Below are positions 8,863 through 51,206 of a stretch of DNA of 64,000 nt, one piece after another. The stretch comes from a virus (taxonomy: Duplodnaviria; Caudoviricetes): IMG/VR virus record IMGVR_UViG_3300037419_002279, positions 9,183 through 73,182 of that record, one strand, 5' to 3'. Each line of letters opens with the position of its first letter. Within the stretch, counting starts at the first letter, position 1. The translations under genes and the position numbers were made by a program. A model generated the notes under the pieces. That model did no database searches, was not told where the DNA came from, and saw only the letters and a program-made list of their open reading frames with translations.

Positions 8863-9321
8863 TCATTGCTCGCCGGTCCTGTCGTAGAGGTCGCGCAGCA
8901 GCGGCATGGTCTGATCGATCAGGTCGATCGCCCTACCGCCGGCGCCACGCTTCGCCACGCCGGGGATAGCCAGCAGCCCGGCGCGCAGGTCGGCCAGCAT
9001 CAGCATCAGGTCGGCCAGGCTACGCGACAGACTGCCATCGGCGGCCTGCGGGATCAGCACGCGCCGCTGTTCGCGCCGTTCGATGGCGTCGAGCGCTTCC
9101 AGCCCCAGCGGCGTGATCCGGTAGACGGTTTCGGTGTCAGCATACCGCCGGCGGCGCACATCTTCGGCCGGTAGTTCCTCGTGCGTGCGCTTGTCGCGGA
9201 AGACCGCGATCGTCCAGAACTTCGAACTGCACTGCATGACCGGCTGTGCGCCGTGGCGGGGGCAGACCGTCGGGCCGTCCCGGCGTAGCGTTTCCAGCCA
9301 GCGCCGCTGACCTGCCGTCAT
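8863..9321 (-). CDS. Hypothetical protein
   Basis: ORF MTAGQRRWLETLRRDGP... Confidence 0.6.
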   Translation of the reverse strand: MTAGQRRWLETLRRDGPTVCPRHGAQPVMQCSSKFWTIAVFRDKRTHEELPAEDVRRRRYADTETVYRITPLGLEALDAIERREQRRVLIPQAADGSLSRSLADLMLMLADLRAGLLAIPGVAKRGAGGRAIDLIDQTMPLLRDLYDRTGEQ

Positions 9322-32971: not shown

Positions 32972-35815
32972 ATGACCCAACTACAGATCGAATACAGGCC
33001 GGTAGAAGCCTTGATCCCGTATGCGCTGAACCCGAAAACGCATTCGGATGCGCAGATCGCCGCGATCGGCGAGTCGATGCGCGAATTCGGCTGGACGAAC
33101 CCGGTGCTGATCGACGGCCGGGGCGGGATCATCGCCGGACACGGCCGCATCGCCGCGGCGAAGGCGCAGGGGATCAGCGACGTCCCCTGCATCGTCCTCG
33201 ATCACCTGAATGACGCGCAGGTACGCGCCCTGGTCACGCTGGACAACTGGCTGACCGAACACGGCGCGTCCTGGAACCTGCCGCTGCTGCAAGGCGAGAT
33301 TGCCGCGCTGTCGGACATGAAGTTCGACCTCGAACGCTTCGGCATGACAGCGCCGAACCTGACCGCCGCCTTCCCGGGTCTGTTCGCCGCCGGCACCGGT
33401 GCAGCACCGCTGGCGGAACGCACCGCCCCCGTCGGTAACCTGGCCGACCGCTTCGGCCTGCCGCCGTTTTCTGTCCTGTCCGCCCGCGACGGATGGTGGC
33501 AGGCACGCAAGCGGGCCTGGCTGCGCTTAGGCATCCGCTCCGAACTCGGCCGCGGCGTCGAAAACCCCGACGATCCGCAACTGACCTACAAAGGCCAGGC
33601 CAGCCTCAACGCGATCACCGGTCAGCGCAAAGCCGGGCTGCTATACGGCGAACAGAGCGCCGAATTCGATCATTACCGCCGGCGCGAAGGCACCCGCCCA
33701 GCGCTTGCCGAAGAAGGCGACGCCCGGCAGGTGATCGGGACATCGATCTTCGATCCGGTGCTCTGCGAATTGGCCTATCGCTGGTTCTGCCCGCCCGGCG
33801 GTGCCGTCCTCGACCCGTTTGCCGGCGGATCGGTCCGCGGTGTTGTCGCCGCCTGGCTCGGCCGGCAGTATGTCGGCGTCGATCTGTCCGGCCGGCAGAT
33901 CGCGGCAAACAGAGAACAATGGGAGGCTATCCGCGAAGGCCGGCCGACAGCGAAGCCTGAACCCATCATCGAGGATCCTGCCGCGTTGACGCCGATCCAG
34001 GCCGTCGGCGACGTGCTGGTCAAACGCGATGACCTGTTCGAATTCGCCGGCGTACCCGGGGGCAAAGTCCGAACCTGTCTTGCCCTAGCCCGGGCCGCCC
34101 TTGCGGCAGGGCAAGGCGGGCTTGTCACCGCCGGGTCGCGGGCAAGCCCCCAGGTCAACATCGTCGCCCGCGTGGGCCGCGCCCTGGGCCTGCCGGTGCG
34201 GTGCCACACCCCGCAGGGCAAGCTGGCCCTTGAAGTCCAGGCCGCCCTCGAAGCAAGGGCAGAAGTCATCCAGCACAAAGCCGGGCACAACACCGTCATC
34301 GTCGCCCGCGCCCGCGAAGACGCCGCCGCCCGCGGCTGGGCGGAAATCCCCTTCGGCATGGAATGCCTCGAAGCGATCACCCAGACGCGGCGCCAGGTCG
34401 CGAACGTCCCGCCCGATGTCCGACGCATTGTCATCCCCGTCGGATCCGGCATGTCAGCCGCCGGCGTGCTCTGGGGCCTGATCGATCAGGGCCTGTCGAT
34501 GCCGGTCATCGGCGTCGTCGTCGGCGCTGATCCCGCCGATCGGCTGGATCACCATGCGCCGCAGGACTGGCGCGACCGCATGACGCTGATCCCGTCCGGG
34601 TCGGACTATCACGAGCCGGCCGCGCAAACAGCGTTCGGACATCTCGACCTCGACCCCCACTACGAAGCGAAGTGCATCGATTTCCTTGAGCCCGGTGACC
34701 TGCTCTGGATCGTTGGCGTGCGCGCCACGTCCAGACTGGCGTCCCGGCCGGCGTCGACTTCAGTCGTGGCACCGTCGGCCGGGTCTGCCCTGCGCTGGCG
34801 CGTGGGCGCAAAGACGATGACCGCCCGCCATGACTGCACCCTGTCCGGCATCCAGACCCGCTGCGGCGGCGGTTGCTGCCGCGCCGGGCCGTCCCGCAGT
34901 TACTGGCCGGCGCGCGCCTACGGCGATGTCTGCGGCAACCTCGGCCCGTCCGGCTGCACCCTGTCCCCGGACGACAAGCCGGTGACCTGCCTGCTCTATC
35001 CGCTGGTGGCCCACGACGATAAGGGCTCGATCGTGCTGCATCATCGGACCCGGCTGCCGACGTCGGTCTGCCGCGGCAATTACGGCCAGGGGCCGATGCT
35101 GATCGATGCGATCGAAGGCAACCTGCGCACGCTGTTCGGCGATGCGCAATTCGAGCGGGTGCATGCCGAGGTCACCGCCGGGCGCGACAGCTATTTCGAC
35201 GTCCCGCCCGATATCGCCGAAGCCGTCCGCCGCGAACACGGCTGGGCCGAGCATGCGATCAAGCCGGTGCCGCGGTCGCAGGCGGGGACGATACCAGAGT
35301 CCACACCGCCCGCGCGGCCCGATCCGGTCTGGATCGAAGGAGACTCACGTGCGATCGCCGATCTCCTGCCGGCGGATTTCGAAGCCGACTTCATCTGGAC
35401 CTGCCCGCCCTACGCGGACCTCGAAGTCTACAGCGACCATCCGGCCGATCTGTCGGCAATGTCAGACCCGGACTTTACTGACGCCTATCGGCAGATCATC
35501 GCCGCAGCCTGCGCGCGGCTGAAGCCGGACCGGTTCGCCGCGATTACCGTGGGCGAAGTGCGCGATGATCGGGGCATGTGCCGCAACCTGCCCGGCCTGA
35601 CGATCGAGGCGTTCGAAGCGGCCGGCCTGAAGCTCTACAACGACGCGATCCTGGTCACCGCCGTCGGCAGCCTGCCGATCCGTGTCGGCCGGCAATTCAC
35701 CGCCGCCCGCAAGCTCGGACGGACCCATCAATCGGTGCTGGTGTTCATCAAGGGCGACCCGAAAGCGGCAACGGCCGCGTGCGGGGACGTCGAATTCGGG
35801 GACGCGCCCACATAG
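32972..35815 (+). CDS. ParB-like domain + DNA amino-methyltransferase split by a PLP-dependent enzyme domain and a Cys-rich domain
   Basis: ParB GIIAGHGRIAAA; MTase motif I VLDPFAGGSVRG and motif IV WTCPPY; PLP fold-II LTPIQ..VLVKRDDL..GGKVR, VIPVGSGMS, DLDPHYEAK; CGGGCC..KPVTCLLYP. Confidence 0.85.
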   Translation: MTQLQIEYRPVEALIPYALNPKTHSDAQIAAIGESMREFGWTNPVLIDGRGGIIAGHGRIAAAKAQGISDVPCIVLDHLNDAQVRALVTLDNWLTEHGASWNLPLLQGEIAALSDMKFDLERFGMTAPNLTAAFPGLFAAGTGAAPLAERTAPVGNLADRFGLPPFSVLSARDGWWQARKRAWLRLGIRSELGRGVENPDDPQLTYKGQASLNAITGQRKAGLLYGEQSAEFDHYRRREGTRPALAEEGDARQVIGTSIFDPVLCELAYRWFCPPGGAVLDPFAGGSVRGVVAAWLGRQYVGVDLSGRQIAANREQWEAIREGRPTAKPEPIIEDPAALTPIQAVGDVLVKRDDLFEFAGVPGGKVRTCLALARAALAAGQGGLVTAGSRASPQVNIVARVGRALGLPVRCHTPQGKLALEVQAALEARAEVIQHKAGHNTVIVARAREDAAARGWAEIPFGMECLEAITQTRRQVANVPPDVRRIVIPVGSGMSAAGVLWGLIDQGLSMPVIGVVVGADPADRLDHHAPQDWRDRMTLIPSGSDYHEPAAQTAFGHLDLDPHYEAKCIDFLEPGDLLWIVGVRATSRLASRPASTSVVAPSAGSALRWRVGAKTMTARHDCTLSGIQTRCGGGCCRAGPSRSYWPARAYGDVCGNLGPSGCTLSPDDKPVTCLLYPLVAHDDKGSIVLHHRTRLPTSVCRGNYGQGPMLIDAIEGNLRTLFGDAQFERVHAEVTAGRDSYFDVPPDIAEAVRREHGWAEHAIKPVPRSQAGTIPESTPPARPDPVWIEGDSRAIADLLPADFEADFIWTCPPYADLEVYSDHPADLSAMSDPDFTDAYRQIIAAACARLKPDRFAAITVGEVRDDRGMCRNLPGLTIEAFEAAGLKLYNDAILVTAVGSLPIRVGRQFTAARKLGRTHQSVLVFIKGDPKAATAACGDVEFGDAPT

Positions 35816-36073
35816 AAGATCGGCCGGGTATGACCCCGGCCGCCGTGCTGCCCCCCTGGGGCCTGTTCTATTAGGTGAGGTTTGAGAGTCCCCGCGCGGC
35901 CTCGCAGAGACGGACACTGGACGCCGCCGCGGCGCCGCGGCGCAACTCACGAAGCGGGGAAGTCAGACCAGAAGTCTGACGTCATCCCCGCCAGTTTAGC
36001 CAAACGACGAACCCGCCGAACAAGCCGGCGGCGAAGATCGGCCAGATGATCCAGGTCAGGACCTGATCCGCGG

Positions 36074-36286
36074 TCATTGAAGCCTCCCGAGCAGCGCGCG
36101 GGCAGCGGCGTGCACGCCGACCGCGATGATAATCCAGACCAGGCCGCTGACAAAGCGGCCGGCCCCTTCGATCTGTCCCGACGCCGCCGGGGCGATGAAC
36201 CCGGCGACGGCAAAGGCGACAGCGACGTTGTTCAGACCCGTCGCGGCAAGCTTGATCCGTTCGTTGTGGATGTCCGGTGCCGGCAT
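36074..36286 (-). CDS. Small two-helix membrane protein
   Basis: IHNERIKLAATGLNNVAVA. Confidence 0.65.
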   Translation of the reverse strand: MPAPDIHNERIKLAATGLNNVAVAFAVAGFIAPAASGQIEGAGRFVSGLVWIIIAVGVHAAARALLGRLQ

Positions 36287-36501
36287 CAGGAAGCATCCGG
36301 CGGGCGCGGCCCGCCATGGACCTCGCCGCTGGTGTCGAAATGCCAGATGCGTTCGGATCCGTCCCAGCATTCCCAGGCAGTCCAGTTCGGGTCATGGAAA
36401 ATGCCCGGGATCATCCGGCGCGCGGGGTTCTGCGCATCGGCTGTCGCCTGCCGCGTCTCGCCTGTCACCCGGTTGCGGAAGACGTACGTCGGCATCATCA
36501 T
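36286..36501 (-). CDS. Hypothetical protein
   Basis: Coupled ORF with GAGG RBS. Confidence 0.55.
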   Translation of the reverse strand: MMMPTYVFRNRVTGETRQATADAQNPARRMIPGIFHDPNWTAWECWDGSERIWHFDTSGEVHGGPRPPDAS

Positions 36502-36683
36502 CCCTCCCTCAGTGCGGCGATGAAGCGCTGCACGACCGCGACGTCATGTTCCATCAGGCTTGCCGTCGCGACGACATTGCCATCGGACAGCTTCCGCCGC
36601 CCGCCTAGTTCGATCACCTCTACAATCGCCTGTTGCAGCCGCATTGCGGCCCGCAAGGCGCCGATCGCCTGTTCCGATTTCAT
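36498..36683 (-). CDS. Hypothetical protein
   Basis: MKSEQAIGALR... Confidence 0.55.
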   Translation of the reverse strand: MKSEQAIGALRAAMRLQQAIVEVIELGGRRKLSDGNVVATASLMEHDVAVVQRFIAALREG

Positions 36684-36765
36684 GTCCGCGCCCCCTTGAC
36701 CAGACGCGCAACGATACTGACGTGTAGCCGGAATAGAAGACCGGCCAAGCTCTGCCATGGGCACA

Positions 36766-37101
36766 TCATATCGGTGTCCTTTCGTCGGCGGTCACGGTGT
36801 GCATCCGGCCGCCGGTGTTGTTGGTGACCTCGAAGCTGTCGGGGTAGCTGGCGAAAATCGCCAGCGCGTCGCCGCCGGGCCGCGACGTGATCTGACCGGT
36901 GACTGCGAACAGCCCGTCGGCCGTCACATCGGGGAAGACCGCAAGTTCCAGCATCCAGCCGCTGCGATCGGTGCGCCGATCGCCCGTGTGGTCGATGAAC
37001 AGCACGACGTCCCAGCCTGACCCGCCGGGATTGGCGGTCACGCGCACCTCGAACGGCGTCCCGCCGTCGCGCGGTTGAACAGTTGTTTGCACGGTCAGCA
37101 C
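36766..37101 (-). CDS. Hypothetical protein
   Basis: GTG start with GGAG RBS. Confidence 0.5.
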   Translation of the reverse strand: MLTVQTTVQPRDGGTPFEVRVTANPGGSGWDVVLFIDHTGDRRTDRSGWMLELAVFPDVTADGLFAVTGQITSRPGGDALAIFASYPDSFEVTNNTGGRMHTVTADERTPI

Positions 37102-37394
37102 CTCCAGCGGCAGATGACGACGACGTCCGGCTGCGGCGGCTGCGCGGCGGCAACGGCAGCCAGTGCGATGATAGGCAGCAGCAGCAAACCGAGCGCGACA
37201 TTCCCGGCGGTTTCGTTGTTTTTCTGCGTTTCTAGATTGGCTTCGGCCTGTCTTTGCGGCAGCCGGTCGCACGCGACCTTGTCGCCTTGCTGGCACCAGG
37301 CCTGATCCTGTTTGAGATTGTCGTGCGCATAGGACGCACAGCCGGACAGAAGCGTCAGCGCCATCAGCGCCGCGCGAATGCGGTATTTTACCAT
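37095..37394 (-). CDS. Lipoprotein with C-terminal hydrophobic helix
   Basis: Lipobox LLSGC; GLLLLPIIALAAVAAA. Confidence 0.7.
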   Translation of the reverse strand: MVKYRIRAALMALTLLSGCASYAHDNLKQDQAWCQQGDKVACDRLPQRQAEANLETQKNNETAGNVALGLLLLPIIALAAVAAAQPPQPDVVVICRWRC

Positions 37395-37420
37395 AGGTTC
37401 GGTGTCCTTTTTGGTGGTTA

Positions 37421-38347
37421 CTAGATCGAGCGATCGTCAGTTGGCGTCCGCACCGGCGCCGGGCGGCTGAACGGCGGCGTTGGCGGCGCACTAGGGGCCG
37501 CAGATCCGGCAAACGGCTGTGTCGGCGGCGTAGCCGGGGCAACGGGCGGCTGTCGGCCGTAAGGCTGCGTCGCGAACTGCGTGCTATCGCGCATGCACGA
37601 CAGCATGCGCAAAACCGCGACCTGCGACCCGCTCATCTTCGCGATCCAGGGCGTTTCGGTCCCGTCGGGGAAGCTGACAACCATACTGTTCGCCTGGGCA
37701 AGGCGCGTCAGAAACCGCTGCGGCGTGTCGATATCGAGTTCAACAAGCCCACCCCCGTTCGGATGCGCTGTTCCGATGCCCTCCCAGGGAACGTCCTGAT
37801 CAAACTGCACCGTCATGTGCAGCCGTGTCCCGGCAGGAATGCGCCAGCTGTCTTTATGCAGGTGGATGACGAGGCTGTCGTCTTTCTTGAACCATTTGAC
37901 GATGAAGACCTTGTCGGGACCGGTGACCTTGACGCCGCACATCCAGGTGCCGTCGTTGACCGTGCCGGCAATGGTTGTCCATGCGCCGTACTGACTGATG
38001 GTGCGCACCTCGGCCCGGGCAGCGGGGATAAGCAAGCCGGCCGCCGCGACCGCCGCTAGGATCATGGATTTCATCGGCCGCGCCGCGCGCTGCGCCGCCG
38101 TCGGATAGGCATCGCCGATGCAGATCGCACCGCCCCGGGGATGGATGCCGTAGATGATCGCGCGCCGGCCGTGGGCGCCGTGTTCGGCGTTCATCCGATC
38201 AGCGATCTGCTGCGCCTGGTCGCGGGTCGCGGCGTCTTCGCGGATCACCTCGTAAGGTGACTTACGAAACCAGACGGAAAAAGCGGTGCATTCCGCAATG
38301 CGCTGTCGCTCGTAAGTATCGGCGGGATGTTCATGAGATCTAGGCAT
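37421..38347 (-). CDS. Hypothetical protein; appears to be two genes in one frame (second starts 38074 with a signal peptide)
   Basis: Internal MKSMILAAVAAAGLLIPAARA. Confidence 0.55.
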   Translation of the reverse strand: MPRSHEHPADTYERQRIAECTAFSVWFRKSPYEVIREDAATRDQAQQIADRMNAEHGAHGRRAIIYGIHPRGGAICIGDAYPTAAQRAARPMKSMILAAVAAAGLLIPAARAEVRTISQYGAWTTIAGTVNDGTWMCGVKVTGPDKVFIVKWFKKDDSLVIHLHKDSWRIPAGTRLHMTVQFDQDVPWEGIGTAHPNGGGLVELDIDTPQRFLTRLAQANSMVVSFPDGTETPWIAKMSGSQVAVLRMLSCMRDSTQFATQPYGRQPPVAPATPPTQPFAGSAAPSAPPTPPFSRPAPVRTPTDDRSI

Positions 38348-38366
38348 CGATCGGTGTCCTTCGTTT

Positions 38367-38403
38367 CTGTGCGTTACGCACAGTTCATGTAAACGATCTG
38401 TGC
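38367..38403. promoter_or_regulatory. Second CTGTGC-N5-GCACAG operator plus extra half-site
   Basis: CTGTGCGTTACGCACAG at 38367-38383, ATCTGTGC at 38396. Confidence 0.6.
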
Positions 38404-38489
38404 GCTAGGAGCAATTACTCATCGATATGAAGTAAACCATGAGGACAGATTTAATTTTTTCGCACGCCATACAGGGCGGACCGGATTAA

Positions 38490-38948
38490 ATGTCGGACGC
38501 CCCACGCGGACGCGGCCGCCCGCCGCATATCCCGACACCCGAACAGCGCCGGCTGGTGCAGGTGCTGCGCAGCAACGGCACCGCGCTGCGGGTCATCGCG
38601 CGCAACCTGTCCCTCGATGTGACGACGCTGCGCAAAGCCTACAAAGACGAATTGCGCGAAGGCCATGAATCCGTCGTCGCCGCCGTCGGCGCGGCGATCG
38701 TGCAGCAAGCGCTGAACGGCAATGTGCACGCGGCCAAGTACTGGCTGTCCACCCACGGCGGTCCGGAATGGAAAATCGTCGAGGGCCGTCAGATCGGCGG
38801 CATGCCCGGCGCTGATCCGATCCCGATCCAGCAATCAGGCGAATCGCGCGTCGTTATCGTGCTGCCGGATAACGGCCGCGACCGGGCGGCGATCGGCGAT
38901 GCGCTCGGCTTAGGCGACACCGCCGAGGGCCGGACATTGAATGACTAG
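38490..38948 (+). CDS. terS: Terminase small subunit
   Basis: GRPPHIPTPEQRRLV HTH; NVHAAKYWL; directly upstream of terL. Confidence 0.8.
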   Translation: MSDAPRGRGRPPHIPTPEQRRLVQVLRSNGTALRVIARNLSLDVTTLRKAYKDELREGHESVVAAVGAAIVQQALNGNVHAAKYWLSTHGGPEWKIVEGRQIGGMPGADPIPIQQSGESRVVIVLPDNGRDRAAIGDALGLGDTAEGRTLND

Positions 38949-40347
38949 GGAAATCCGGCCGAACCCCGGACCGCAATCGGATTTTCTGGCAAATGCCGCG
39001 GACCTGACGATTTTCGGCGGCGCGGCCGGCGGTGGAAAAACCTGGGCGCTGCTCCTCGAACCGCTGCGCCACGTCACCACAAACCCTGCTTTCGCCGCGG
39101 TCTGCTTCCGCCGCACGACGGTGCAGATCAGAAATCCCGGCGGGCTGTGGGATCAGTCAATGCGGCTATATCCGCTGATCGGCGGCATCCCGGCCGGACA
39201 GCCGCTCGAATGGCGCTGGAAAAACGGCGGGAAAATCAAATTCGCGCACCTCGAACACGAAAATAACAAACTCGACTGGCACGGCAGCGAAATCCCGCTG
39301 CTGCTGTTCGACGAACTGACGCATTTTACCGCCACGCAGTTTTGGTATTTGTTGAGCCGCAATCGCTCGATGTCCGGCGTCGCCGGCTATGTCCGCGCAT
39401 CCTGTAATGCCGACGCCGATAGCTGGGTCGCACAACTGATCGAATGGTGGATCGACCAGACGACGGGCCTGCCGATCCGCGAACGCTGCGGCGCGTTGCG
39501 CTGGTTTGTCCGCATATCCGACGAAATGATCTGGGCGGATGATCCGGACACGCTGCGCCGCGATTATCCGGGCTCGCTGCCGAAGTCGCTGACGTTTATT
39601 GCCGCGACCCTCGATGACAACCCCGCGCTAAATGCGGTCGATCCCGGCTACCGCGCGAACCTGATGGCGCTGCAACGCGTCGAGCGCGAACGGCTGCTCG
39701 GCGGCAATTGGCTGATCCGCGCGTCCGCCGGTAATTTCTTCCAGGCCGGCTGGTGCGAATTCATCGATGCGGCCCCCGCCGGGATGACCGAAGTGCGCGG
39801 ATGGGATTTAGCAGGCACGCGCGACGACGGCACGAATGACCCCGACTGGACGACCGGCACACGCATGGGCCGCACCCCTGACGGCCGCTACGTCGTGCTC
39901 GATCATGTCTGGATGCGCGGCACCCCGGGGCAGGTCGAACGGCTGATCTACAACACAGCGACTCAGGACGGGAAGAAGGTCGCGATCAGTCTGCCGAAGG
40001 ATCCCGGACAGGCCGGCGTCGCACAGGTCCTGGCGTTGACTAAGATGCTCGCCGGCTGGATCGTCAAATCGTCACCCGAGTCAGGCGATAAGGAAACGCG
40101 CTTTTCCCCGTTCAGCGCCCAGGCCGAGGCCGGCAATGTGCTGGTGCTGCGCGGGCCGTGGATCCAGCGCTGGATCAGGCAACTCGAAGGCTTTCCGGAG
40201 GCGCCGCATGATGACGATGCTGACAGCACCGCGCGCGCCTTCAACTTCCTTGCCGAGCGGCCGGCCGTGCGCCGCTTTTCCGATGCCGCCCTGCTGCGCG
40301 CGGCCCAGCGCCGCGACGGCGGCCCGGTTGTGAGCCGGCCGTTTTGA
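38941..40347 (+). CDS. terL: Terminase large subunit
   Basis: Walker A GGAAGGGKT, Walker B LLLFDE, nuclease GWDLA and HDDDADS. Confidence 0.95.
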   Translation: MTREIRPNPGPQSDFLANAADLTIFGGAAGGGKTWALLLEPLRHVTTNPAFAAVCFRRTTVQIRNPGGLWDQSMRLYPLIGGIPAGQPLEWRWKNGGKIKFAHLEHENNKLDWHGSEIPLLLFDELTHFTATQFWYLLSRNRSMSGVAGYVRASCNADADSWVAQLIEWWIDQTTGLPIRERCGALRWFVRISDEMIWADDPDTLRRDYPGSLPKSLTFIAATLDDNPALNAVDPGYRANLMALQRVERERLLGGNWLIRASAGNFFQAGWCEFIDAAPAGMTEVRGWDLAGTRDDGTNDPDWTTGTRMGRTPDGRYVVLDHVWMRGTPGQVERLIYNTATQDGKKVAISLPKDPGQAGVAQVLALTKMLAGWIVKSSPESGDKETRFSPFSAQAEAGNVLVLRGPWIQRWIRQLEGFPEAPHDDDADSTARAFNFLAERPAVRRFSDAALLRAAQRRDGGPVVSRPF

Positions 40348-42320
40348 TTTCCTGGGCAACGATCACCGCCGCGGCCAGCCTGCTGCTGGGGCGTACCGCG
40401 CCGCCCGCACCGGCCCCGGCCCCGGTGCCCGAGCCGCGCCGCATTCGCCACACAGCACCCGGCCCGTCGCGCCCGACCGTGACGCCCTGGCAGATCGCAG
40501 CACCCCCGCCCGGCGTCGTGCCCGAAGGGGCGGCGACGATGGCGCAGGACGATGCCCTGACCGGGCTGTATGCCTACGCGTCCGCGTCGAACGTCTGGGG
40601 CGAAGGGCTGCAATGGTTCGGCTATCCGTTCCTCGCCGAACTCGCGCAGCGTGCCGAATACCGGCAGATCAGCGAGACGCTTGCGAAGGAAATGACCCGC
40701 AAATGGATCACGATCCAGGCCACCGGGTCCGACGACGGCAAGGCCGATAAGGTCCGCGCGCTCGAGCTCGCCTTCAAGCGGCTGAAGGTCCAGCAGGCAT
40801 TCCGCCGTGCCGCCGAATTGGACGGATTATTCGGCCGGGCACAAATCTATATCGACACCGGCTGCACGGATGATCCGGACGAACTGCGCACGCGGCTGAC
40901 GCCGACGCCGGAAAAGATCAGCCGCGGCGGGCTGAAGGGCCTGCGCGTCGTCGAGCCGCTGTGGACCTATCCGACCGACTACAACAGCATCGACCCGCTG
41001 CGCCCGAATTACTTCGTCCCGCGCGCCTGGTTCGTGCAGGGCCGGCACATCGATGCGACACGGCTGCTGACCTTTGTCAGCCGCGAAATGCCCGACATGC
41101 TGAAGCCGGCCTATAGCTTCGGCGGCCTGTCGATGTCGCAACTCGCCTACCCGTATGTCGAAAATTGGCTCCGGACTCGGCAGTCCGTCAGCGACATGCT
41201 GCACACCTTCAGCGTCACCGGGCTGAAGACGAATATGCAGGTGATGACCGACGACGAGGTGTTTCAGAAGGCGCAGTTCTTCAACAATTTCCGCGACAAC
41301 CGCGGCCTGATGATGATCGACAAAGAGGCCGACGACTTCTTCAACATCAGTGCACCGTTGGGTGGGCTCGATCACCTGCAAGCGCAGGCGCAAGAGCAGA
41401 TGGCTTCGGTCGCGCGCATCCCGCTTGTCGTGCTGCTGGGCATCACGCCGTCGGGGCTGAACGCATCATCGGACGGCGAAATCCGCACCTTCTATGCGTG
41501 GATCGAGGCGCAGCAGGAAGCGCTGTTCGCCGACCATCTAAACACCGTCCTTAAATACGTGCAGCTATCCGAATTCGGCGAGGTCGATCCCGAGATCGGT
41601 TTCCGCTTCAACCCGTGCTGGACGCTGGACGAAGAAAAGCAGGCGACGGTGCGCAAGACGCAGGCCGACACCGCGGCCGTCTACATTCAAGCCGGGGTGT
41701 TGTCGCCGCACGAAGAGCGCGAACGGATCGCGCAGGACGAGGACAGCCCGTATGCCGCGCTGGATCTCGCCGATCGCGAAGACCCGACGCCGCCGGCTGA
41801 TCCGGCCGCTGAGGGCGATCCACTGTCCGAACCTGACAACGACAATCAGCCGCCGCCGGGACGTCCGGACCTGCCCCACCCCGCCGGGGTAGGCCGTCCG
41901 GATGTGGGCCGGCCTGGTGGCCCCGGGCGGCCGGCTGCCAGCCGCCCGGTCGGCCCCGGACGCCCGGACGTGGCCCGCGGTGCGCAGGACATCAGCCTGT
42001 GGGATCTCGACTGGCTGCTCGACAAATACGCCCATGTCTTTGGACAGCGCCCGTCCTGGGACATCCCGCCGCACGCCTATCCGCAGGCGGCGCTGGCGCT
42101 GACGCAGGCGATCGCCACCGGCGAGCCGGTCGATGACGACGCCGAATTCGACGACGCCGAGGCCGGGGGATTTGGTGAGGACGCCGGCTTCGAGGAAGCC
42201 GACCACCCCCGTGACCAGGGCGGCAAGTTCACCTCAGGCGCCGGATCGGGCGGCGGTTCGACAAAAGGTCCGACCGAAAAGGCTAAAGGTCGAACTAGCA
42301 TTCAGCGACGGCCGGCGTAG
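40344..42320 (+). CDS. Portal protein (DUF1073-type) with long C-terminal extension
   Basis: YPFLAELAQRAEYRQI, GLDHLQAQAQEQMASVARIPLVVLLGITPSGLNASS. Confidence 0.9.
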   Translation: MISWATITAAASLLLGRTAPPAPAPAPVPEPRRIRHTAPGPSRPTVTPWQIAAPPPGVVPEGAATMAQDDALTGLYAYASASNVWGEGLQWFGYPFLAELAQRAEYRQISETLAKEMTRKWITIQATGSDDGKADKVRALELAFKRLKVQQAFRRAAELDGLFGRAQIYIDTGCTDDPDELRTRLTPTPEKISRGGLKGLRVVEPLWTYPTDYNSIDPLRPNYFVPRAWFVQGRHIDATRLLTFVSREMPDMLKPAYSFGGLSMSQLAYPYVENWLRTRQSVSDMLHTFSVTGLKTNMQVMTDDEVFQKAQFFNNFRDNRGLMMIDKEADDFFNISAPLGGLDHLQAQAQEQMASVARIPLVVLLGITPSGLNASSDGEIRTFYAWIEAQQEALFADHLNTVLKYVQLSEFGEVDPEIGFRFNPCWTLDEEKQATVRKTQADTAAVYIQAGVLSPHEERERIAQDEDSPYAALDLADREDPTPPADPAAEGDPLSEPDNDNQPPPGRPDLPHPAGVGRPDVGRPGGPGRPAASRPVGPGRPDVARGAQDISLWDLDWLLDKYAHVFGQRPSWDIPPHAYPQAALALTQAIATGEPVDDDAEFDDAEAGGFGEDAGFEEADHPRDQGGKFTSGAGSGGGSTKGPTEKAKGRTSIQRRPA

Positions 42321-42364
42321 CCACCTTTAACAAGGGCACCGCACCGCCGGCCGAACTGAACGGT

Positions 42365-43663
42365 GTGCCCTTCAAGTCCTGGAAGCCCCCGCACAACGCG
42401 GCGGCGTGGAAGCTGCTCGCCCATGTCGGGCCGGCGTTCGACGAACCGCCGCTGCCGCCGGTGCCGAAGGGCATGAAGCAGGGCGCGGGCGTCATCGTCC
42501 GCGAGCCCGACGGCCGCATCTGGCTGATGCATCCGAAAAAGGGTTACGGCGGCTACAAGGCGACCTTCCCCAAGGGCACAGTCGAGTCCGACATCGGGCC
42601 GCGCGCAACCGCGATCAAAGAGGCCTACGAAGAAACCGGCCTGCATGTCCGCCTGACCGGCTACGCGGGCGATGTGAAGCGCACGACGTCGGTCGGCCGC
42701 TACTACTACGCCGAACGGGTCGGCGGCACGCCGGCCGATGCCGGCTGGGAAGCGTCCGGCGTCAGCCTGGCCGAACCGGACGCGCTGCATAAGCTGCTGA
42801 ACGCCCCGCACGATAAGGCGCTGGCGTCCGCGGTGACCGGCGGGGCGCCCCTGCCGCCGGTAGAGTCCGCACCCGACAAAGCGCCGACAAAAACCGACGA
42901 CGCGCCGACGAAAGCCGGCGGCGTTCCTGAAAAGGCCCCGGCAAATCCGACAAAGGCACAGGATGTTCCCGACATAAGCGCCTGGAAGAAGGTCGGCGCG
43001 CAACTCGGCTCGAACCCCGGCGGCACCTACACCGACCCGTCGGGCGCGAAGTGGTACGCGAAGCAGCAGAAGTCCGAACATCACGCGCGCAACGAGGCGC
43101 TCGCCTCGGCGCTGTATCAGGCCGCCGGTTCGCCCGTCGTCAACAGCAAGCTGGTCAAGTTCGGCGACACCTGGGGCACGGCGACGCCCTGGCTCGACGG
43201 CGAGAAGCACGACATCGGATCGAAGCCTTCGCAGGCGGATCGCGACGCCGCGGCGGAAGACTTCGCGACGCATGCCTGGCTGTCGAACCGCGACGCGGTC
43301 GGCCTCGATTATACGAACCAGGCGAAAATCGACGGCAAGATGCGCACGATGGACGTCGGCGGCGCGCTGGAATTCCGTGCGCAAGGCGGGAAGAAGCCCA
43401 GCTTCGGCGATACCGCGGACGAATGGGACAGCCTGCGCAACGCCGGGATCAACCCGCAGACGCATGCCGTCTACGGCGCGATGACGCCGGCACAACTGAA
43501 GGCCTCGGCCGCGAAGGTCGCAGCGGTCCCGGATCAGACAATCCGGACCCTGGTCGATCAGCATGGGCACGGCGACGCGGCGGCAAAGAAGGCGCTCGCC
43601 GAGAAGCTGATCGCGCGCAAGGCCGACATCGCGGCCCGGGCCGCCGCCCTGTCCGACAAATAG
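42365..43663 (+). CDS. NUDIX hydrolase + HipA/PI4K-like kinase domain (frame open from 42299)
   Basis: Nudix box PKGTVE...AIKEAYEETGL; kinase WYAK, RNEALA, WLSNRDAVG, MDVGG. Confidence 0.75.
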   Translation: MPFKSWKPPHNAAAWKLLAHVGPAFDEPPLPPVPKGMKQGAGVIVREPDGRIWLMHPKKGYGGYKATFPKGTVESDIGPRATAIKEAYEETGLHVRLTGYAGDVKRTTSVGRYYYAERVGGTPADAGWEASGVSLAEPDALHKLLNAPHDKALASAVTGGAPLPPVESAPDKAPTKTDDAPTKAGGVPEKAPANPTKAQDVPDISAWKKVGAQLGSNPGGTYTDPSGAKWYAKQQKSEHHARNEALASALYQAAGSPVVNSKLVKFGDTWGTATPWLDGEKHDIGSKPSQADRDAAAEDFATHAWLSNRDAVGLDYTNQAKIDGKMRTMDVGGALEFRAQGGKKPSFGDTADEWDSLRNAGINPQTHAVYGAMTPAQLKASAAKVAAVPDQTIRTLVDQHGHGDAAAKKALAEKLIARKADIAARAAALSDK

Positions 43664-43763
43664 TCGAACCGCGGAAGGGGAAGGTATGACCGATGCCCTG
43701 TTCCCGCGGGCCGGCACCTGCCGCCGTGCGATCCCCCGCCTGATCCTGCCCCGCCCCGGGCTG

Positions 43764-46520
43764 ATGGCGCGCGACGACTGGCAGGCGCACCTGCACCCGC
43801 GCGACGAGACGGGCAAGTTCACGTCCGGCCCCGGATCGCATGCAGAGTCGACGCCGAAGCATCCGGCCTGGATGGGCAAGACCGGCCAGGCGTTCTACGA
43901 CGAAGTCGTCAACGGCCTCGGCTCGAAGCATCACGACGAAATTGCCCAGGCGCTGAAGGACAAGGCCGCGACGCTGAAGGCCGGCGACTATTCGTCCTAT
44001 GCGAACAAGCTGCTGGCGCACGTCGAACAGGCGCACGGGCTGGAAAAGGGCAAGCTCGGCAAGGCAAAGCCGATGGGCAAGGCGGCCCCGCCGGCCGCGA
44101 AGGAACCGCCGGCACCGGCGCCCGAACCCGCGAAGGCACCCGACGTCGACGCCGAGTTCAAGTCGATGGTCGACGAAGCCCTGGCGACCGGAAGTCCGCA
44201 GCAGCACGCCGAATTCCTCGAAGGTCTGATCCCGCACACCGAAGGCGCGAAGAAGGCATACCTTGAGGGTCAGCTTGCTGATCTGAAGGGCAAGATCGCC
44301 GCCGGCACGGCGAAGGGCGAAGCGACCGAAGCGCCGCTATCGGCGGAAAAGGCCGCGCGCAAAGCCGAGATCGAAGCCGCCGAGGAACCGGCTGCACCGC
44401 CGCCGGAAATCGCAGCGCTGCCCGATCCGGCGACGAAGGTGCAGAAGAATATTCACGACCTGATGCAGTCCGACCTGCCGGTCGAGAGCATCAAGCAGAA
44501 GATCGCGAACATCGCCGAGGCGTCGCAGCACCCGCCGAACAAGGCGTATGCCGAACAGGCCCTGGCGCTGCTGGAACAACAGGCCGGCACAGCCGCGCCG
44601 TCGATGCAGGACGAAGCCTACGCCGAAGCGTCGAAGGCGCTCACGGAAAAGGGCAACATCGGCTTCTGGCTTGACCTGGCGAACAGCAACGGCGTCGATC
44701 CGGACGCCGCGGTCGGGATCAAGCAGGCGATCGCCGAATGGCAGGACGCCAATCCGCCCGACGACGATGAGCCCGCGTTCTTCGCGCCGGCGGAACCTGA
44801 AGCGCCCGAACCGGCGGCGCCGATGACGACCGAACAGGTCGACTCCCTCTATCCGGACGTGTCGGTCGACCTGAAAAGCGCATGGAATGAAGAGATCGCG
44901 AAGAACAAGAAAGGCGCGATCAAGGACCTTGAGAACGTCATCAAGCATTTTTCCGACAAAACGCCCGAGGCGGAAGTCTCGTGGATGAAGGACAAGGTCG
45001 CGGCGCTGAAGGGCGAAGGCACCGCGCCGGCCCCGCCGGCCGACACCGATCTTCCGAAGCCGGCGAACCCCGCGCAAGAAATCATGGCGTCGGCCCTGAC
45101 AAAGACCGGCGTCTTTGCGGACGCATCGCCCGAGACCACCGAGGCGGCGTTCCAGCAGTGGCTCGCCAGCCCGCACATGGCGCCGGAAGACAAGGAATAC
45201 GCGAAGAAGGTCATCGCGAAGATGGGCGCCGAGACCGGCGCCGCCCCGGCCGCCCCGGCGCCGATGACGTCAGAACAGGTCGACGCCGCGCATCCGGATG
45301 TCACGGAAACCCTGAAGAAGAACTGGAATCAGTCGATCGCGCAGGATCCGGCAGGGTCGGCGGCAACCTTGCAGAAATACCTAGAGGTCGGCGCCGGTCT
45401 GAGCCCGACGCTCAAAGCCTGGATGAAGGACAAGGTGGCAGCCCTGAACGCCGCCGGTCACGGCACTGCTGCCCCGGCCGAACCCCCGGCGCCACCGCCC
45501 GAGCCGCCGGTCAGCCTGCCCGCGCCGCACCCGTCGTCGAAGGGCCAGACCCTGGTGCACGGCATTGCATCCGGCGAAGGCAGCAAGGCCGACAAGATCG
45601 CCAAGATCAAGCAGGCGGTCGCCGACGACCCGCACCACTTCCCGGCCGGCGGCTACGCGAAGAAGTACGCCGATCAGCTTATCGCGGCCCTGGGCGGCGA
45701 CCAGACGGCGCAGCAGGCGGCGCCCAAGCCGGCCGCAGCCGCGGCACCGGCCGCGCCCGCAGCAAAGCCCGCAGCGGCCGACCCGGCGCTGCACACGGCC
45801 CCGGCCGGTTCGGCGACGCACGAGGACGATCACGCCGCGCCGATCCCGGCGTATTTCGTCAACCAGGGCATGAAGGCGAAAAGCCGGGTCAGCGCGCACG
45901 ACACGCTGAAGCGCATCCAGAACATCAAGGCGGTTGCCGCGAACGCAAAGACGGTCACGTCGATCACCACGGCGGCGGCGAAGAAGCTCTGCCCGACGGC
46001 GACATCGGCCTGGTGGAAGACAAACGCCGATGCCTCGGTGATCAGCGCAATCCAAAGCTACTCGGGTAGCGGCTACGGCACCATGAACGCGGTGCTGCGC
46101 GGCGACAGCAACGACCCGGCTGCGCTGGCGAAGATCAACCATATCGACGATATGTTCGAGCACGACGAGGCCGCCGTGACCGACGACGTGATCGTGCACC
46201 GCGGGGAAAATCTGACGGACGACACCGTCATTGCCAAATGGGAAGCGGCGCTGAAGGCCGGCAAGCCGGTGCGCGAGATCAAGCACGGCTTCACGTCCGC
46301 ATCCCTTGCCGATCACGCGGCCTTTTCCCACCACAACGTCCAGTATCAGATCACCGTCCGCAAAGGGTCGCGGATGCTGGGCATCGGCGTCAAAGGCGTC
46401 TCGGGTTACGGCTCGGACGAAAACGAAGTGCTGCTGCGCCACGGCCAGACGTTCGAAATCTACGACATCACACGAGCGAGCAACGGCCGCGTGTTCGTCA
46501 AGATGGCCGTCACAACTTAG
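43764..46520 (+). CDS. Large protein with C-terminal R-S-E ADP-ribosyltransferase (VIP2/C3/Alt-like)
   Basis: SYSGSGYGTMNAVLRG, VHRG, FTSAS, ENEVLL; alternative start at 43686. Confidence 0.85.
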   Translation: MARDDWQAHLHPRDETGKFTSGPGSHAESTPKHPAWMGKTGQAFYDEVVNGLGSKHHDEIAQALKDKAATLKAGDYSSYANKLLAHVEQAHGLEKGKLGKAKPMGKAAPPAAKEPPAPAPEPAKAPDVDAEFKSMVDEALATGSPQQHAEFLEGLIPHTEGAKKAYLEGQLADLKGKIAAGTAKGEATEAPLSAEKAARKAEIEAAEEPAAPPPEIAALPDPATKVQKNIHDLMQSDLPVESIKQKIANIAEASQHPPNKAYAEQALALLEQQAGTAAPSMQDEAYAEASKALTEKGNIGFWLDLANSNGVDPDAAVGIKQAIAEWQDANPPDDDEPAFFAPAEPEAPEPAAPMTTEQVDSLYPDVSVDLKSAWNEEIAKNKKGAIKDLENVIKHFSDKTPEAEVSWMKDKVAALKGEGTAPAPPADTDLPKPANPAQEIMASALTKTGVFADASPETTEAAFQQWLASPHMAPEDKEYAKKVIAKMGAETGAAPAAPAPMTSEQVDAAHPDVTETLKKNWNQSIAQDPAGSAATLQKYLEVGAGLSPTLKAWMKDKVAALNAAGHGTAAPAEPPAPPPEPPVSLPAPHPSSKGQTLVHGIASGEGSKADKIAKIKQAVADDPHHFPAGGYAKKYADQLIAALGGDQTAQQAAPKPAAAAAPAAPAAKPAAADPALHTAPAGSATHEDDHAAPIPAYFVNQGMKAKSRVSAHDTLKRIQNIKAVAANAKTVTSITTAAAKKLCPTATSAWWKTNADASVISAIQSYSGSGYGTMNAVLRGDSNDPAALAKINHIDDMFEHDEAAVTDDVIVHRGENLTDDTVIAKWEAALKAGKPVREIKHGFTSASLADHAAFSHHNVQYQITVRKGSRMLGIGVKGVSGYGSDENEVLLRHGQTFEIYDITRASNGRVFVKMAVTT

Positions 46521-47655: not shown

Positions 47656-48453
47656 ATGCTTGAGTCGCCGACCGGCAAGCCGGTAACCCTCGGCGCGGCG
47701 CATCCGAACGCCGGCCTCGAAGTGCAGTACCGCCGCAAGCTGGTCCGCCTGGTCGATGAGATGAACCGGTCGATCCTCTACTGGATCCGCGTCTACTACC
47801 GCCGCGACCCGCCCGAAATCGCCCAGGACAGCCCGGCGGGCACGCTGATCAAGGCCATCCGCGGCCTCGGCCGGCGCTGGACCCGGCGCTTCAACGACAC
47901 AGCCGACGAGCTTGCCGCCTATTTCGGCACCGCGATCCGCAACCGGTCCGAGGCGGCGTTGCAGGACATCCTGCGCCGGGGCGGCTTTTCCGTCCGCTTC
48001 CGCCCGTCGGCCGCCGTCCGCGACGTCCTCGATGCGATCGTCGCCGAGAATGTCAGCCTGATCCGGTCGATCCCGGCGCAGCATTTCACCCAGATCGAGG
48101 GGATGGTGATGCGCTCGGTCCAGGCCGGGCGGGACCTGAAGCAACTGACCGACGATCTACAGGATACCTTCGGCGTCACCCGCCGCCGGGCGATCGCGAT
48201 CGCGCGAGATCAGAACAACAAGGCGACGGCGATGATCACCCGCGCCCGACAGATGGAAATCGGCGTCACCAAGGCGATCTGGCTGCACAGCCACGGCGGC
48301 AATCCGCGGCCCGAGCATCTGTCCTGGTCGGGGCAGGAATACGACGTCGCGAAGGGCATGTGGTCGAAGGTCGATCAGGCCTGGGTCTGGCCGGGGACCG
48401 CCATCAACTGCCGCTGCGTCAGCAAGTCGATCGTGCCGGGTTATTCAGCCTAG
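47656..48453 (+). CDS. Phage head morphogenesis protein (MuF/SPP1 gp7)
   Basis: IARDQNNKA, IWLHSHGG.PRPEH, PGTAINCRC. Confidence 0.9.
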   Translation: MLESPTGKPVTLGAAHPNAGLEVQYRRKLVRLVDEMNRSILYWIRVYYRRDPPEIAQDSPAGTLIKAIRGLGRRWTRRFNDTADELAAYFGTAIRNRSEAALQDILRRGGFSVRFRPSAAVRDVLDAIVAENVSLIRSIPAQHFTQIEGMVMRSVQAGRDLKQLTDDLQDTFGVTRRRAIAIARDQNNKATAMITRARQMEIGVTKAIWLHSHGGNPRPEHLSWSGQEYDVAKGMWSKVDQAWVWPGTAINCRCVSKSIVPGYSA

Positions 48454-49421: not shown

Positions 49422-51206
49422 ATGCCCATCCGATCGTGCACCTTGCCCGACGGCGGCAAGGGCTACAAATGGGGCGATTCCGGAAAATGCTACCGGAATC
49501 GTAAAGACGCCGAACGCCAGGCCTCTGCCGCCTATGCGAACGGCTACGCCGGCGACGAAGCGCTGATCCCGCCCGGCATGCGGGCGGTGATGCCGCAGGA
49601 CCTGATCGTCATGGATCGGCGCCCGTCCGCGCGCCTGATCACCGCCGACGGTCACCTGCGCGTCGCCGGATCGGCTGTCAGCAAGTCGAACGTATGCCCC
49701 TACCTCGGCGCCGAAATACCCGGCTGGCAGCAGTTGGGGCTCGATGCCGGGCGCATCTACCGCCTGTATCGCGACCCGAAGGCGCTAGCCGCCGCGGCCG
49801 ACAGCCTGAACGGCAAGCCGCTCTTGGTCGTGCACCGCCCGCTGACCGCGCAGGATCACGATCACCGTGTCGTCGTCGGCGCCCTCGATAATGCGCACTG
49901 GCAGGCCCCCTATCTGCGCGCCGACCTGACCGTCTGGACGCAGGATGCGATCGATCTGATCGAAAGCGGCGAGCAGCGACAACTGTCGTGCGCCTATCGC
50001 TACACGCCGGTCATGCGTCACGGCGTGACCGCCGACGGCGAGCCCTACGACGGCTACATGGCCGACATCCACTTCAACCATTGCGCGCTTGTTTCGACCG
50101 GCCGGGCCGGGGCGGACGTGATGGTCGGAGACTCCCTCACAAAAGGACTGCTGAGAATGGCAACAGGACAGGCGTCCGCCCGGCTATCGCGCAAAGCGGT
50201 AATGGTTGCCGGTGCGGTGCAGGCTTACATCCACCCGAAGCTAGCGACCGATCAGAAGCCGGATCTGCGTCGCGCGCTGCTCGGCACGACAGCGGCGAAT
50301 TACACCGCGCGCAAGCCGGTGCTGGCGGCGCGGCTGCACCGCGCGCTGTCCGGCAAGCTGGCGAAGGACGCCAGCCTGGCCGAGATCGTCGCCCTGCTCG
50401 ATCGTCTCGAAGGTGACGATACCGCCGTCGGGACGCAGCCCGATCCTGATCCCGACGACGACGGTGACGTCGACGTCGATCTTGATGCCGATGACGACGA
50501 CGGCGCGCGCACCGATCCGCCGCCCGATGATGACGCATCCGACGTCACCCCGGCCGGATCGGACATCCCGCCCGAGGTCGCCGAAGCGGCGGCCGAAAAT
50601 ATCGACCCTGACATCGAAAATCCCGACGCGGGCGACATGCCCCCGCCGGAAGAAGTGCCGGACAGCGACGACGTTACTGCGCCGCCGCCTGATGCCGGAC
50701 CGGCTGGGGAAGTCACCGACAAAGTCCTGACTTTCCTGAATGACCTGATCCGCCCGGAGGACCTGGCAATCGTGACACATCTTCTGAAGCCGAACGGCTC
50801 CGGGTCTGACCCCGAGCCGAAGTCCAAGCTGACCGTCGACAAGCCTGCGTTCGTGACGAAACAGGCGATGGACGCCGCGATTAAGGCGGCGACGAAAGCC
50901 ACTGAGCAGGCAACGATCGCCCGGCTGCGGGCGGTATCGGATGCAAGGGCTTTCATTCGCCCCTGGGTGGGCGAACTGAACATCGCCCAGGACAGCGCCG
51001 AGGGCGTGCTGCGCGCCGCCCTCGAACACCTCGGTGTCGACGTCAAAGACGTCCATCCGTCGGCCTACAAGGCAATCCTGTCGGCGCAGCCCCGCCCCGG
51101 CGAACGGCAGCGCGGCGCCCCGCGCGCGCTCGCGCATGCCGCCGACGCAAAGCCGCTGTCGTTCGAGGAACGATTCCCGCACGCGAACCGGCTACGGGCC
51201 GGCTGA
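49422..51206 (+). CDS. DUF2213-type prohead maturation/scaffold protein
   Basis: SKSNVCPYLGAEIP, QLSCAYRY, NHCALVSTGRAGADV; acidic scaffold region. Confidence 0.85.
   Translation: MPIRSCTLPDGGKGYKWGDSGKCYRNRKDAERQASAAYANGYAGDEALIPPGMRAVMPQDLIVMDRRPSARLITADGHLRVAGSAVSKSNVCPYLGAEIPGWQQLGLDAGRIYRLYRDPKALAAAADSLNGKPLLVVHRPLTAQDHDHRVVVGALDNAHWQAPYLRADLTVWTQDAIDLIESGEQRQLSCAYRYTPVMRHGVTADGEPYDGYMADIHFNHCALVSTGRAGADVMVGDSLTKGLLRMATGQASARLSRKAVMVAGAVQAYIHPKLATDQKPDLRRALLGTTAANYTARKPVLAARLHRALSGKLAKDASLAEIVALLDRLEGDDTAVGTQPDPDPDDDGDVDVDLDADDDDGARTDPPPDDDASDVTPAGSDIPPEVAEAAAENIDPDIENPDAGDMPPPEEVPDSDDVTAPPPDAGPAGEVTDKVLTFLNDLIRPEDLAIVTHLLKPNGSGSDPEPKSKLTVDKPAFVTKQAMDAAIKAATKATEQATIARLRAVSDARAFIRPWVGELNIAQDSAEGVLRAALEHLGVDVKDVHPSAYKAILSAQPRPGERQRGAPRALAHAADAKPLSFEERFPHANRLRAG

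Follow-up and report, generated by a model that had tools for sequence, protein, structure and literature searches.

A portal-anchored NUDIX, kinase and ADP-ribosyltransferase cargo string probably split into three open reading frames in a tailed phage

Introduction

The C-termini of phage portal proteins point into the capsid interior, and in phage T4, Alt and the internal proteins are loaded into the prohead through short N-terminal sequences; the prohead protease then cuts them after (L/I)xE, and they are injected. For polyvalent proteins that include a portal or MuF part, packaging and host delivery are predicted (Iyer, Burroughs, Anand, de Souza, Aravind 2017, PMC5512222). Fusions of Nudix domains to MuF, portal or capsid peptidase have already been noted (Iyer et al. 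2022, PMC9503650), and head packaging is the accepted reading for cargo of this class (PMC5512222, PMC9503650). Here, we analyzed a window of 64,000 nucleotides (nt), positions 9,183 to 73,182 of IMG/VR virus record IMGVR_UViG_3300037419_002279 (Caudoviricetes), part of a metagenome-derived 73-kb virus contig with a CheckV completeness estimate of 91%. In this window, a portal open reading frame (ORF) is followed by a NUDIX-kinase ORF lying out of frame with it and by an ADP-ribosyltransferase (ART) ORF. The class of portal-fused effectors, including NUDIX, is already known, and the window is a new split member of it. From comparison with related sequences, we consider it likely that portal, NUDIX-kinase and ART derive from one portal-anchored cargo polyprotein that has since been split, with a one-base, lineage-specific break within positions 42299-42318.

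Results

The junction between portal and NUDIX-kinase comprises the following features (positions in the window; protein lengths in amino acids, aa; RBS, ribosome-binding site).

40344..42320, plus strand: portal ORF, 658 aa (PF06381, E 1.1e-85; phrog_146)
42189..42230, plus strand: junction tag 1, FEEADHPRDQGGKF, then TSGAGSGGGS, directly preceding the cargo module in relatives
42299..42318, plus strand: frame-change interval of 20 nt, bounded by a TAG of the -1 frame (42296-98) and the portal stop (42318-20)
42299..42364, plus strand: segment HSATAGVATFNKGTAPPAELNG of the -1 frame, homologous to the NUDIX module's conserved N-terminal part
42309..42353, plus strand: 9-bp G+C hairpin CGGCCGGCG / CGCCGGCCG (42309-17 with 42345-53), with the portal stop in its loop
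42365..43663, plus strand: NUDIX-kinase ORF read from GTG, 432 aa, untagged and preceded by a very weak RBS

A preliminary description of this DNA had the portal running about 160 aa past its core to the tag and stopping at 42320, the NUDIX-kinase frame -1 to it, open from 42299 and overlapping its end, and a GTG at 42365 as the sole start, without a clear RBS. All of this is borne out by ORF coordinates, Pfam coverage and start scoring. The Pfam Phage_portal_3 match is restricted to aa 97-445 of the portal ORF, so the C-terminal extension is real; past the core it consists, in order, of a Pro/Arg-rich linker, a segment of ~60 aa, an acidic stretch, the junction tag, and a tail that carries the ORF 29 aa beyond FEEADHPRDQGGKF to its terminus FEEADHPRDQGGKFTSGAGSGGGSTKGPTEKAKGRTSIQRRPA and the TAG at 42318-20. 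The ~60-aa segment (window 41990-42150, aa ~550-600; ISLWDLDWLLDKYAHVFGQRPSWDIPPHAYPQAALALTQAIATG) has no Pfam match and is absent from P0127, the best in-frame relative described below, and a search with portal aa 480-658 found no other relative of 361-1152 aa in a set of 5.8 billion proteins.

The two frames overlap by 22 nt (zero-frame codons 42297-42320: AGC ATT CAG CGA CGG CCG GCG TAG). Because the -1 frame is closed by TAG at 42296-98 and the portal frame by its stop at 42318-20, any shift must fall within 42299-42318. The first start codon in the -1 frame is GTG 42365, 45 nt from the portal stop, and its best anti-Shine-Dalgarno pairing is -2.3 kcal/mol at spacing 0, the weakest among the starts scored; ATG-started genes of the head and tail modules mostly reach -6 to -10 kcal/mol under the same scoring.

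Upstream of this GTG, the -1 frame encodes residues that are conserved in the family. In an alignment of 13 homologues, the motif xTFxKxxxxPxxLNGVxFxxW is conserved and the Gly of LNG (G22) is invariant; in the window, the -1 frame carries it as VATFNKGTAPPAELNG, after the portal stop and ahead of the GTG. When the 454-aa reading that starts at 42299 is modeled with AlphaFold, residues 7-10 and 19-24 form strands and the predicted local distance difference test score (pLDDT) averages 86 over residues 11-20, suggesting that the residues encoded ahead of the GTG are part of the folded module. On the portal side, the tail GGGSTKGPTEKAKGRTS aligns with GGGGTKGAAKAKAKGAG of P0127. Since this tail and the ATFNKG..LNG segment both match P0127, the ancestral reading appears to have left the portal frame for the -1 frame, and since conserved, structured ATFNKG..LNG precedes the GTG in the -1 frame, the ancestral fusion was presumably broken within 42299-42318. 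Because the break follows the tag and cuts conserved structured residues, the 42320/42365 junction is no ordinary gene boundary.

The unbroken state is found in relatives. The longer hits of a homologue search with the NUDIX ORF include many in-frame portal fusions, the best being P0127 (1449 aa, 55% identity), which runs from the portal through WKESDHKRDDGGKF, a Gly run and ..TLTFTGANKQHGVSALHGVPLAKW.. to NUDIX, the kinase-like domain, WKEADHKRDKGGKF, a helical spacer and ART, with GGGG..TLTFTG..HGVPLAKW after the tag and before NUDIX. P0127 is colinear with all three window ORFs, including the portal tail GGGSTKG..KAKG and the -1-frame ATFNKG..LNGVPFKSW. Of 80 related viral loci, 16 encode an in-frame fusion of the portal to NUDIX and/or kinase, four of them in the full order portal-NUDIX-kinase-ART. 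Homologues near the length of the ORF share 45-50% identity over their full length; some of them combine an N-terminal DUF2213 protease domain, ..ESDHPRDDDGKF..GGGG..SFSK..GVKFEKW.., NUDIX and the C-terminal domain, and in close homologues the tag-NUDIX-kinase cargo thus sits on the DUF2213 protease, not on the portal. Each of the 68 loci that match the NUDIX N-terminus has at least 44 in-frame codons upstream of it, and every NUDIX-adjacent tag is in the same frame; the out-of-frame arrangement occurs in none of the 68. With these loci uniformly in frame and tags rarely C-terminal, the arrangement in the window is an exception, and there is no conserved recoding site. The in-frame portal fusions that the preliminary description envisaged in homologues therefore exist (P0127 and 16/80 viral loci), and the outcome that would have spoken against it, independent genes in homologues together with a kinase fold unsupported by structure prediction, was not observed.

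The break itself could be a single-base assembly or sequencing error in a phage that truly carries an in-frame portal-NUDIX-kinase, as the preliminary description had also considered: the contig is metagenome-derived, the break lies within a G+C-rich inverted repeat, a hard sequence context, the read-through is seamlessly colinear with P0127, and the NUDIX-kinase is intact. A second assembly bears on this. L083 (IMGVR_UViG_3300038393_002072), a 7.9-kb contig from a separate IMG/VR record, is 96% identical to window 34553-42319; most substitutions hit third positions of portal-frame codons. At this 4% divergence, it matches the window in base count from the Gly run to GCGTA in the portal tail, and over the final 18 nt the two do not differ. 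The indels that separate the assemblies are all compensated pairs or intergenic, with none uncompensated across 7.6 kb of shared coding sequence, which argues that indel error rates are low. With the same length and frame through the portal tail in L083, an assembly error is unlikely. L083 is the only close relative: a single-protein scan of viral contigs gave none across the junction, a codon-degenerate tag pattern retrieved only L083 among viral contigs and nothing among metagenome contigs, the NGVPFKSWKPP pattern retrieved nothing among metagenome contigs, and portals of the genome collection are at most 57% identical to that of the window.

If the break is real, it might still be crossed. 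Programmed, non-canonical -1 recoding within 42299-42318 would give a minority of portal subunits the NUDIX-kinase and thereby set its dose per dodecamer. Such recoding would fit the 22-nt frame overlap, with conserved structured residues encoded right up to the portal stop, the near lack of an RBS at GTG 42365, the intact NUDIX-kinase, the identical junction sequence in L083, and the 9-bp G+C hairpin that starts at 42309, encloses the stop and is present in both the minimum free energy and the centroid structure of an RNA fold of 42290-42420. However, inspection of the permitted 20 nt found no X_XXY_YYZ slippery heptamer, as the preliminary description had said, and also no homopolymer run and no prfB-like shifty stop; the folded region is no more stable than its shuffles (z-score -0.70, not significant); and the module is in frame in 68/68 related loci, with no conserved recoding site. 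Dose control by shifting is not required either, because in-frame fusions are evidently tolerated in relatives. Of the proposal that portal, NUDIX and kinase form one unit through recoding, the ancestral unit is upheld by the in-frame relatives, whereas recoding, with no signal and no example among the 68 loci, is unlikely. There is likewise only a slim prospect that the hairpin around the portal stop aids a -1 event, so that few of the twelve portal subunits bear the bulky cargo.

The NUDIX-kinase could instead function on its own as an independent, unpackaged protein, made early or late by termination-reinitiation at GTG 42365, with the portal keeping its tag for a role of its own. A single transcript holds stop and GTG at a distance of 45 nt, the ORF is intact and keeps its catalytic residues, some proteins end naturally in the tag, and the adjacent ART is a genuine independent gene. 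We nonetheless regard a functional split of this kind as unlikely. Stand-alone homologues begin with a short leader and a tag (for example, P0006 ..WNEQEHPRGQPENKGQFASTGGGGG..HTFHKG..APLKSWKPP..), and those examined (P0006, P0030, P0031) all carry their own N-terminal tag and the conserved TFxK..LNG, whereas the GTG product would lack both; the Shine-Dalgarno pairing is very weak; and intactness is weak evidence because open frames persist long in G+C-rich DNA.

With recoding and assembly error judged unlikely, what remains of the alternatives first listed is a natural, lineage-specific split, and we favor the breakage of a portal-anchored polyprotein as its likely origin. Several observations weigh against breakage. 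The NUDIX-kinase is not decayed, with zero stops and 67 of 69 family-invariant sites kept (positions invariant in the other twelve family sequences), a state to be expected if the break is very recent, if the ORF is still in use or if it is translated as a fusion. Natural proteins ending in the tag exist (P0146, P0152, P0016), so a terminal tag alone is no proof of breakage. Finally, the L083 contig breaks off at 42319, within the portal stop codon and short of the NUDIX-kinase region; its end could be a mosaic boundary with cargo cassettes that differ between strains, or a drop in coverage at the G+C hairpin. As a sign of pseudogenization, decay was discarded: two deviations in 69 sites fall within the family range of 0-9, and the test does not discriminate.

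The second junction, between NUDIX-kinase and ART, is of another kind.

43669..43685, plus strand: Shine-Dalgarno region GGAAGGGGAAGG, -8.5 kcal/mol
43686..46520, plus strand: ART cargo gene, 944 aa, with N-terminal tag, long Ala/Pro-rich helical spacer and C-terminal R-S-E ADP-ribosyltransferase
43779..43820, plus strand: junction tag 2, WQAHLHPRDETGKF, in the same reading frame as tag 1

The kinase frame ends with TAG at 43661-63, followed by GGAAGGGGAAGG and the ATG at 43686, and the ART protein has its own tag WQAHLHPRDETGKF ~35 residues from its start. The 43663/43686 junction is thus an ordinary boundary, such as stand-alone cargo genes usually have. The stop, the strong RBS and the ATG led us to reject a second frameshift here that would compensate the first, and the sharing of one frame by portal and ART is a 1-in-3 coincidence. 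The ART gene is colinear with the C-terminal third of P0127. Its ART domain (aa 777-933, nt 46014-46484) matches PF03496 at 56.9 bits against a cut-off of 23.4, as well as phrog_3895 and phrog_802, and the motifs VHRG, FTSAS and ENEVLL are visible.

Both junctions carry the same short and highly conserved tag, which in relatives stands ahead of each cargo module and has the consensus [WF]xExxHPR(x2-7)G[KQE]F followed by a Gly run. HPRDxxGKF occurs twice in the window (42204, 43794) against 0.11 expected by chance, and the two copies (42204-42250 and 43794-43840) share ~80% DNA identity over 45 nt in the same frame; recombination between them would remove the NUDIX-kinase and yield an in-frame portal-ART fusion. 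In 44 of about 240 homologues, we found 74 instances of the tag, of which 18 are N-terminal, 53 internal and 3 C-terminal. It is missing from cargo-less portals (7 viral loci and about 40 prophages in bacterial genomes, the latter with the gene order portal-MuF-protease), whereas tagged portals continue for at least 150 aa beyond it, which makes the tag a candidate signal for head loading or processing that can be put to the test. No Pfam model exists for it, and no mention of [WF]xExxHPR..G[KQ]F was found in the portions of the polyvalent-protein literature covered here (PMC5512222, PMC9503650). The tag opens with a hydrophobic-x-Glu triplet. A general head protease site was considered and rejected: the window has only two copies, and since the capsid and protease genes contain none, the tag is not such a site. 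It would rather serve as a loading and/or processing joint.

The NUDIX-kinase ORF has two recognizable domains.

42479..42820, plus strand: NUDIX domain (PF00293, aa 61-174 of P0002)
42974..43660, plus strand: atypical protein-kinase-like domain of the CtkA/HipA/PI4K kind, 229 aa

The NUDIX domain matches PF00293 at 47.4 bits (cut-off 21.1, E 2.6e-12). By inspection, its Nudix box core, K107-E108-A-Y-E111-E112-T-G114-L115, has Lys for Arg and an upstream Glu off the canonical spacing; across the family, Lys, all three Glu, Gly and Leu do not vary. Its substrates may be ADP-ribose or NAD-derived nucleotides or caps.

The C-terminal domain had been described as a HipA/PI4K-like kinase, which is right at the level of fold. 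Its AlphaFold2 model (pLDDT 94.9, predicted template modeling score 0.92) matches CtkA 3akj at Z 15.6 (root-mean-square deviation 3.3, 205/229 residues), PI4KIIalpha at 13.0, CotH at 12.9, MavQ at 12.2, HipA at 11.9 and Fam20 at 11.7, with ordinary protein kinases lower, and CtkA and HipA take the top Foldseek ranks (E 4e-6). Sequence identity to atypical kinases is 9-16%. No Pfam or NCBIfam model covers the domain: HipA_C stays below threshold (14.6 bits vs 30.5, E 0.026, aa 21-66), Pfam PI3_PI4_kinase gives no match, and a PDB sequence search returned NUDIX and protein tyrosine phosphatase (PTP) matches only, with none for the kinase domain; HipA_2 is the nearest named cluster in the Atlas, at 0.92. 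In the predicted model, this is a CtkA/HipA-like kinase by fold and no HipA family member by sequence. Across 30 sequences, G12, G17, K30, N40, E41, N105, D107, D127, G129 and G130 are invariant, and the window kinase keeps all ten (W106 is R in the window). They lie in a GSNPGG loop, in a strand (Lys30) and the next helix (Asn40-Glu41), after helix 97-102 (Asn105-x-Asp107) and after strand 122-125 (Asp127-x-Gly-Gly); as modeled, these are the places of the ATP-binding and catalytic residues of atypical kinases.

The kinase-like family is large, with 3784 clusters at 50% identity, 2417 of them at E 1e-10 or better, and most clusters are embedded in proteins of 1000-7000 aa. Elsewhere, the domain is fused to ART or stands alone with an N-terminal tag. 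It also occurs behind an N-terminal CDKN3/DSP-type tyrosine phosphatase in ~410-aa alphaproteobacterial proteins (P0036, P0054, P0066, P0081, P0082 and others) from Rhodobacter capsulatus, Bradyrhizobium, Blastochloris and Rhodoblastus, which lack the phage tag.

Other long homologues show further combinations. NUDIX-kinase cargo is fused to a type IB topoisomerase (PF01028, PF21338) in P0125, P0126, P0129, P0131 and P0178, and others add WGR (PF05406), PF23474 or a second ART (PF01129). P0124 (Paraburkholderia, 1905 aa) scores 772 bits with a best local alignment that covers just 36% of the query, which suggests from the alignment pattern that it holds several tandem copies of these modules. 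In the cultured Yersinia phage fHe-Yen8-01 (L133, OR620963.1, 1-7549), the NUDIX homologue gp131 is annotated as particle-associated and adjoins gp129, a particle-associated 'ADP-ribosyltransferase toxin' of >2000 aa.

The three ORFs are part of a head module on the plus strand with the order large terminase, portal, NUDIX-kinase ORF, ART ORF, MuF, DUF2213 protease and major capsid protein.

38941-40347, plus strand: large terminase
47656..48453, plus strand: MuF-like head morphogenesis protein
49422..51206, plus strand: DUF2213 head maturation protease, 594 aa
56299-57795, plus strand: DUF3383 protein, probable tail sheath, downstream of the major capsid protein

The DUF2213 protease contains a long, acidic linker rich in Asp and Pro; its helical C-terminal part may act as a fused scaffold. 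The single profile phrog_30637 unites portal and DUF2213, indicating that portal-protease fusions also exist.

Discussion

The ancestor of this locus would have encoded, in one frame, a portal whose C-terminus in the capsid interior led through a tag into NUDIX and an atypical kinase and, through a second tag, into an Alt-like ART, so that the cargo would have been built into the head and released into the host together with the DNA. Two breaks would have opened this string. One set an ordinary stop/RBS/ATG boundary ahead of the ART, which kept its own tag and would still be loaded through it; the other, a one-base change with a net shift of -1 within 42299-42318, fell between tag 1 and the NUDIX module. 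After the latter, the portal would end 29 aa past a tag without cargo, and the NUDIX-kinase would be makeable, if at all, only from GTG 42365 by coupling to portal termination, lacking both the tag and its first conserved strand. Severed from tag and portal, the NUDIX-kinase is probably not loaded and may not be made. Head packaging and injection of such cargo, the function of the tag and the substrates of the enzymes are inferred; kinase and ART would modify host proteins early in infection.

The split illustrates that cargo strings break and reshuffle at module joints. The locus also lends a clear natural example to the view that host-directed enzymes are hung by phages on head-interior proteins, the portal or the head protease, and delivered with the DNA. 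Perhaps more useful than the split itself are its by-products, the junction tag and a large CtkA/HipA-like kinase family that Pfam does not model and that travels with NUDIX and ART cargo. There is also a small chance that [WF]xExxHPR..G[KQ]F is a portable signal of general use for loading phage cargo into heads and processing it. In annotation, the GTG-started call of 432 aa is best handled as one piece of a larger unit.

The window shares with T4 an Alt-like R-S-E ART (PF03496, phrog_802) in the head gene cluster, and the hydrophobic-x-Glu start of its short N-terminal tags resembles, in sequence, the (L/I)xE sites of the prohead protease. The tag sequence is unrelated to the capsid-targeting sequence of T4 and has no further copy in the capsid protein or elsewhere in the window, the protease is DUF2213 here and gp21 in T4, and the cargo can be covalently joined to portal or protease. 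The window kinase is like CtkA (H. pylori JHP0940), HipA, PI4KIIalpha, CotH and MavQ in its predicted fold. It differs in being a compact domain (229 aa) that serves as a module of giant phage proteins and PTP fusions and not as the toxin of a toxin-antitoxin pair. With the programmed -1 frameshifts of phage structural genes, such as tail chaperone G/GT, the locus shares overlapping frames and a downstream frame without its own start, but it has no slippery heptamer, its frame break is not conserved, and in-frame versions are common.

With the polyvalent and portal-fused effectors, the locus shares the site in the head module, ART, Nudix and kinase strung on a head protein in relatives, and predicted packaging and injection. 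The kinase is of the CtkA/HipA/PI4K kind, in contrast to the truncated Ser/Thr/Tyr-type kinase that PMC5512222 describes in phages of Verrucomicrobia and Bacteroidetes. At least two effector domains share one polypeptide with a head protein in the homologues P0127, P0134 and P0177 and in 16 viral loci. In the window, those domains lie side by side and in colinear order but in three ORFs, with NUDIX and kinase still on one polypeptide; it differs from other polyvalent proteins in that the string is broken into these three ORFs, with one junction out of frame.

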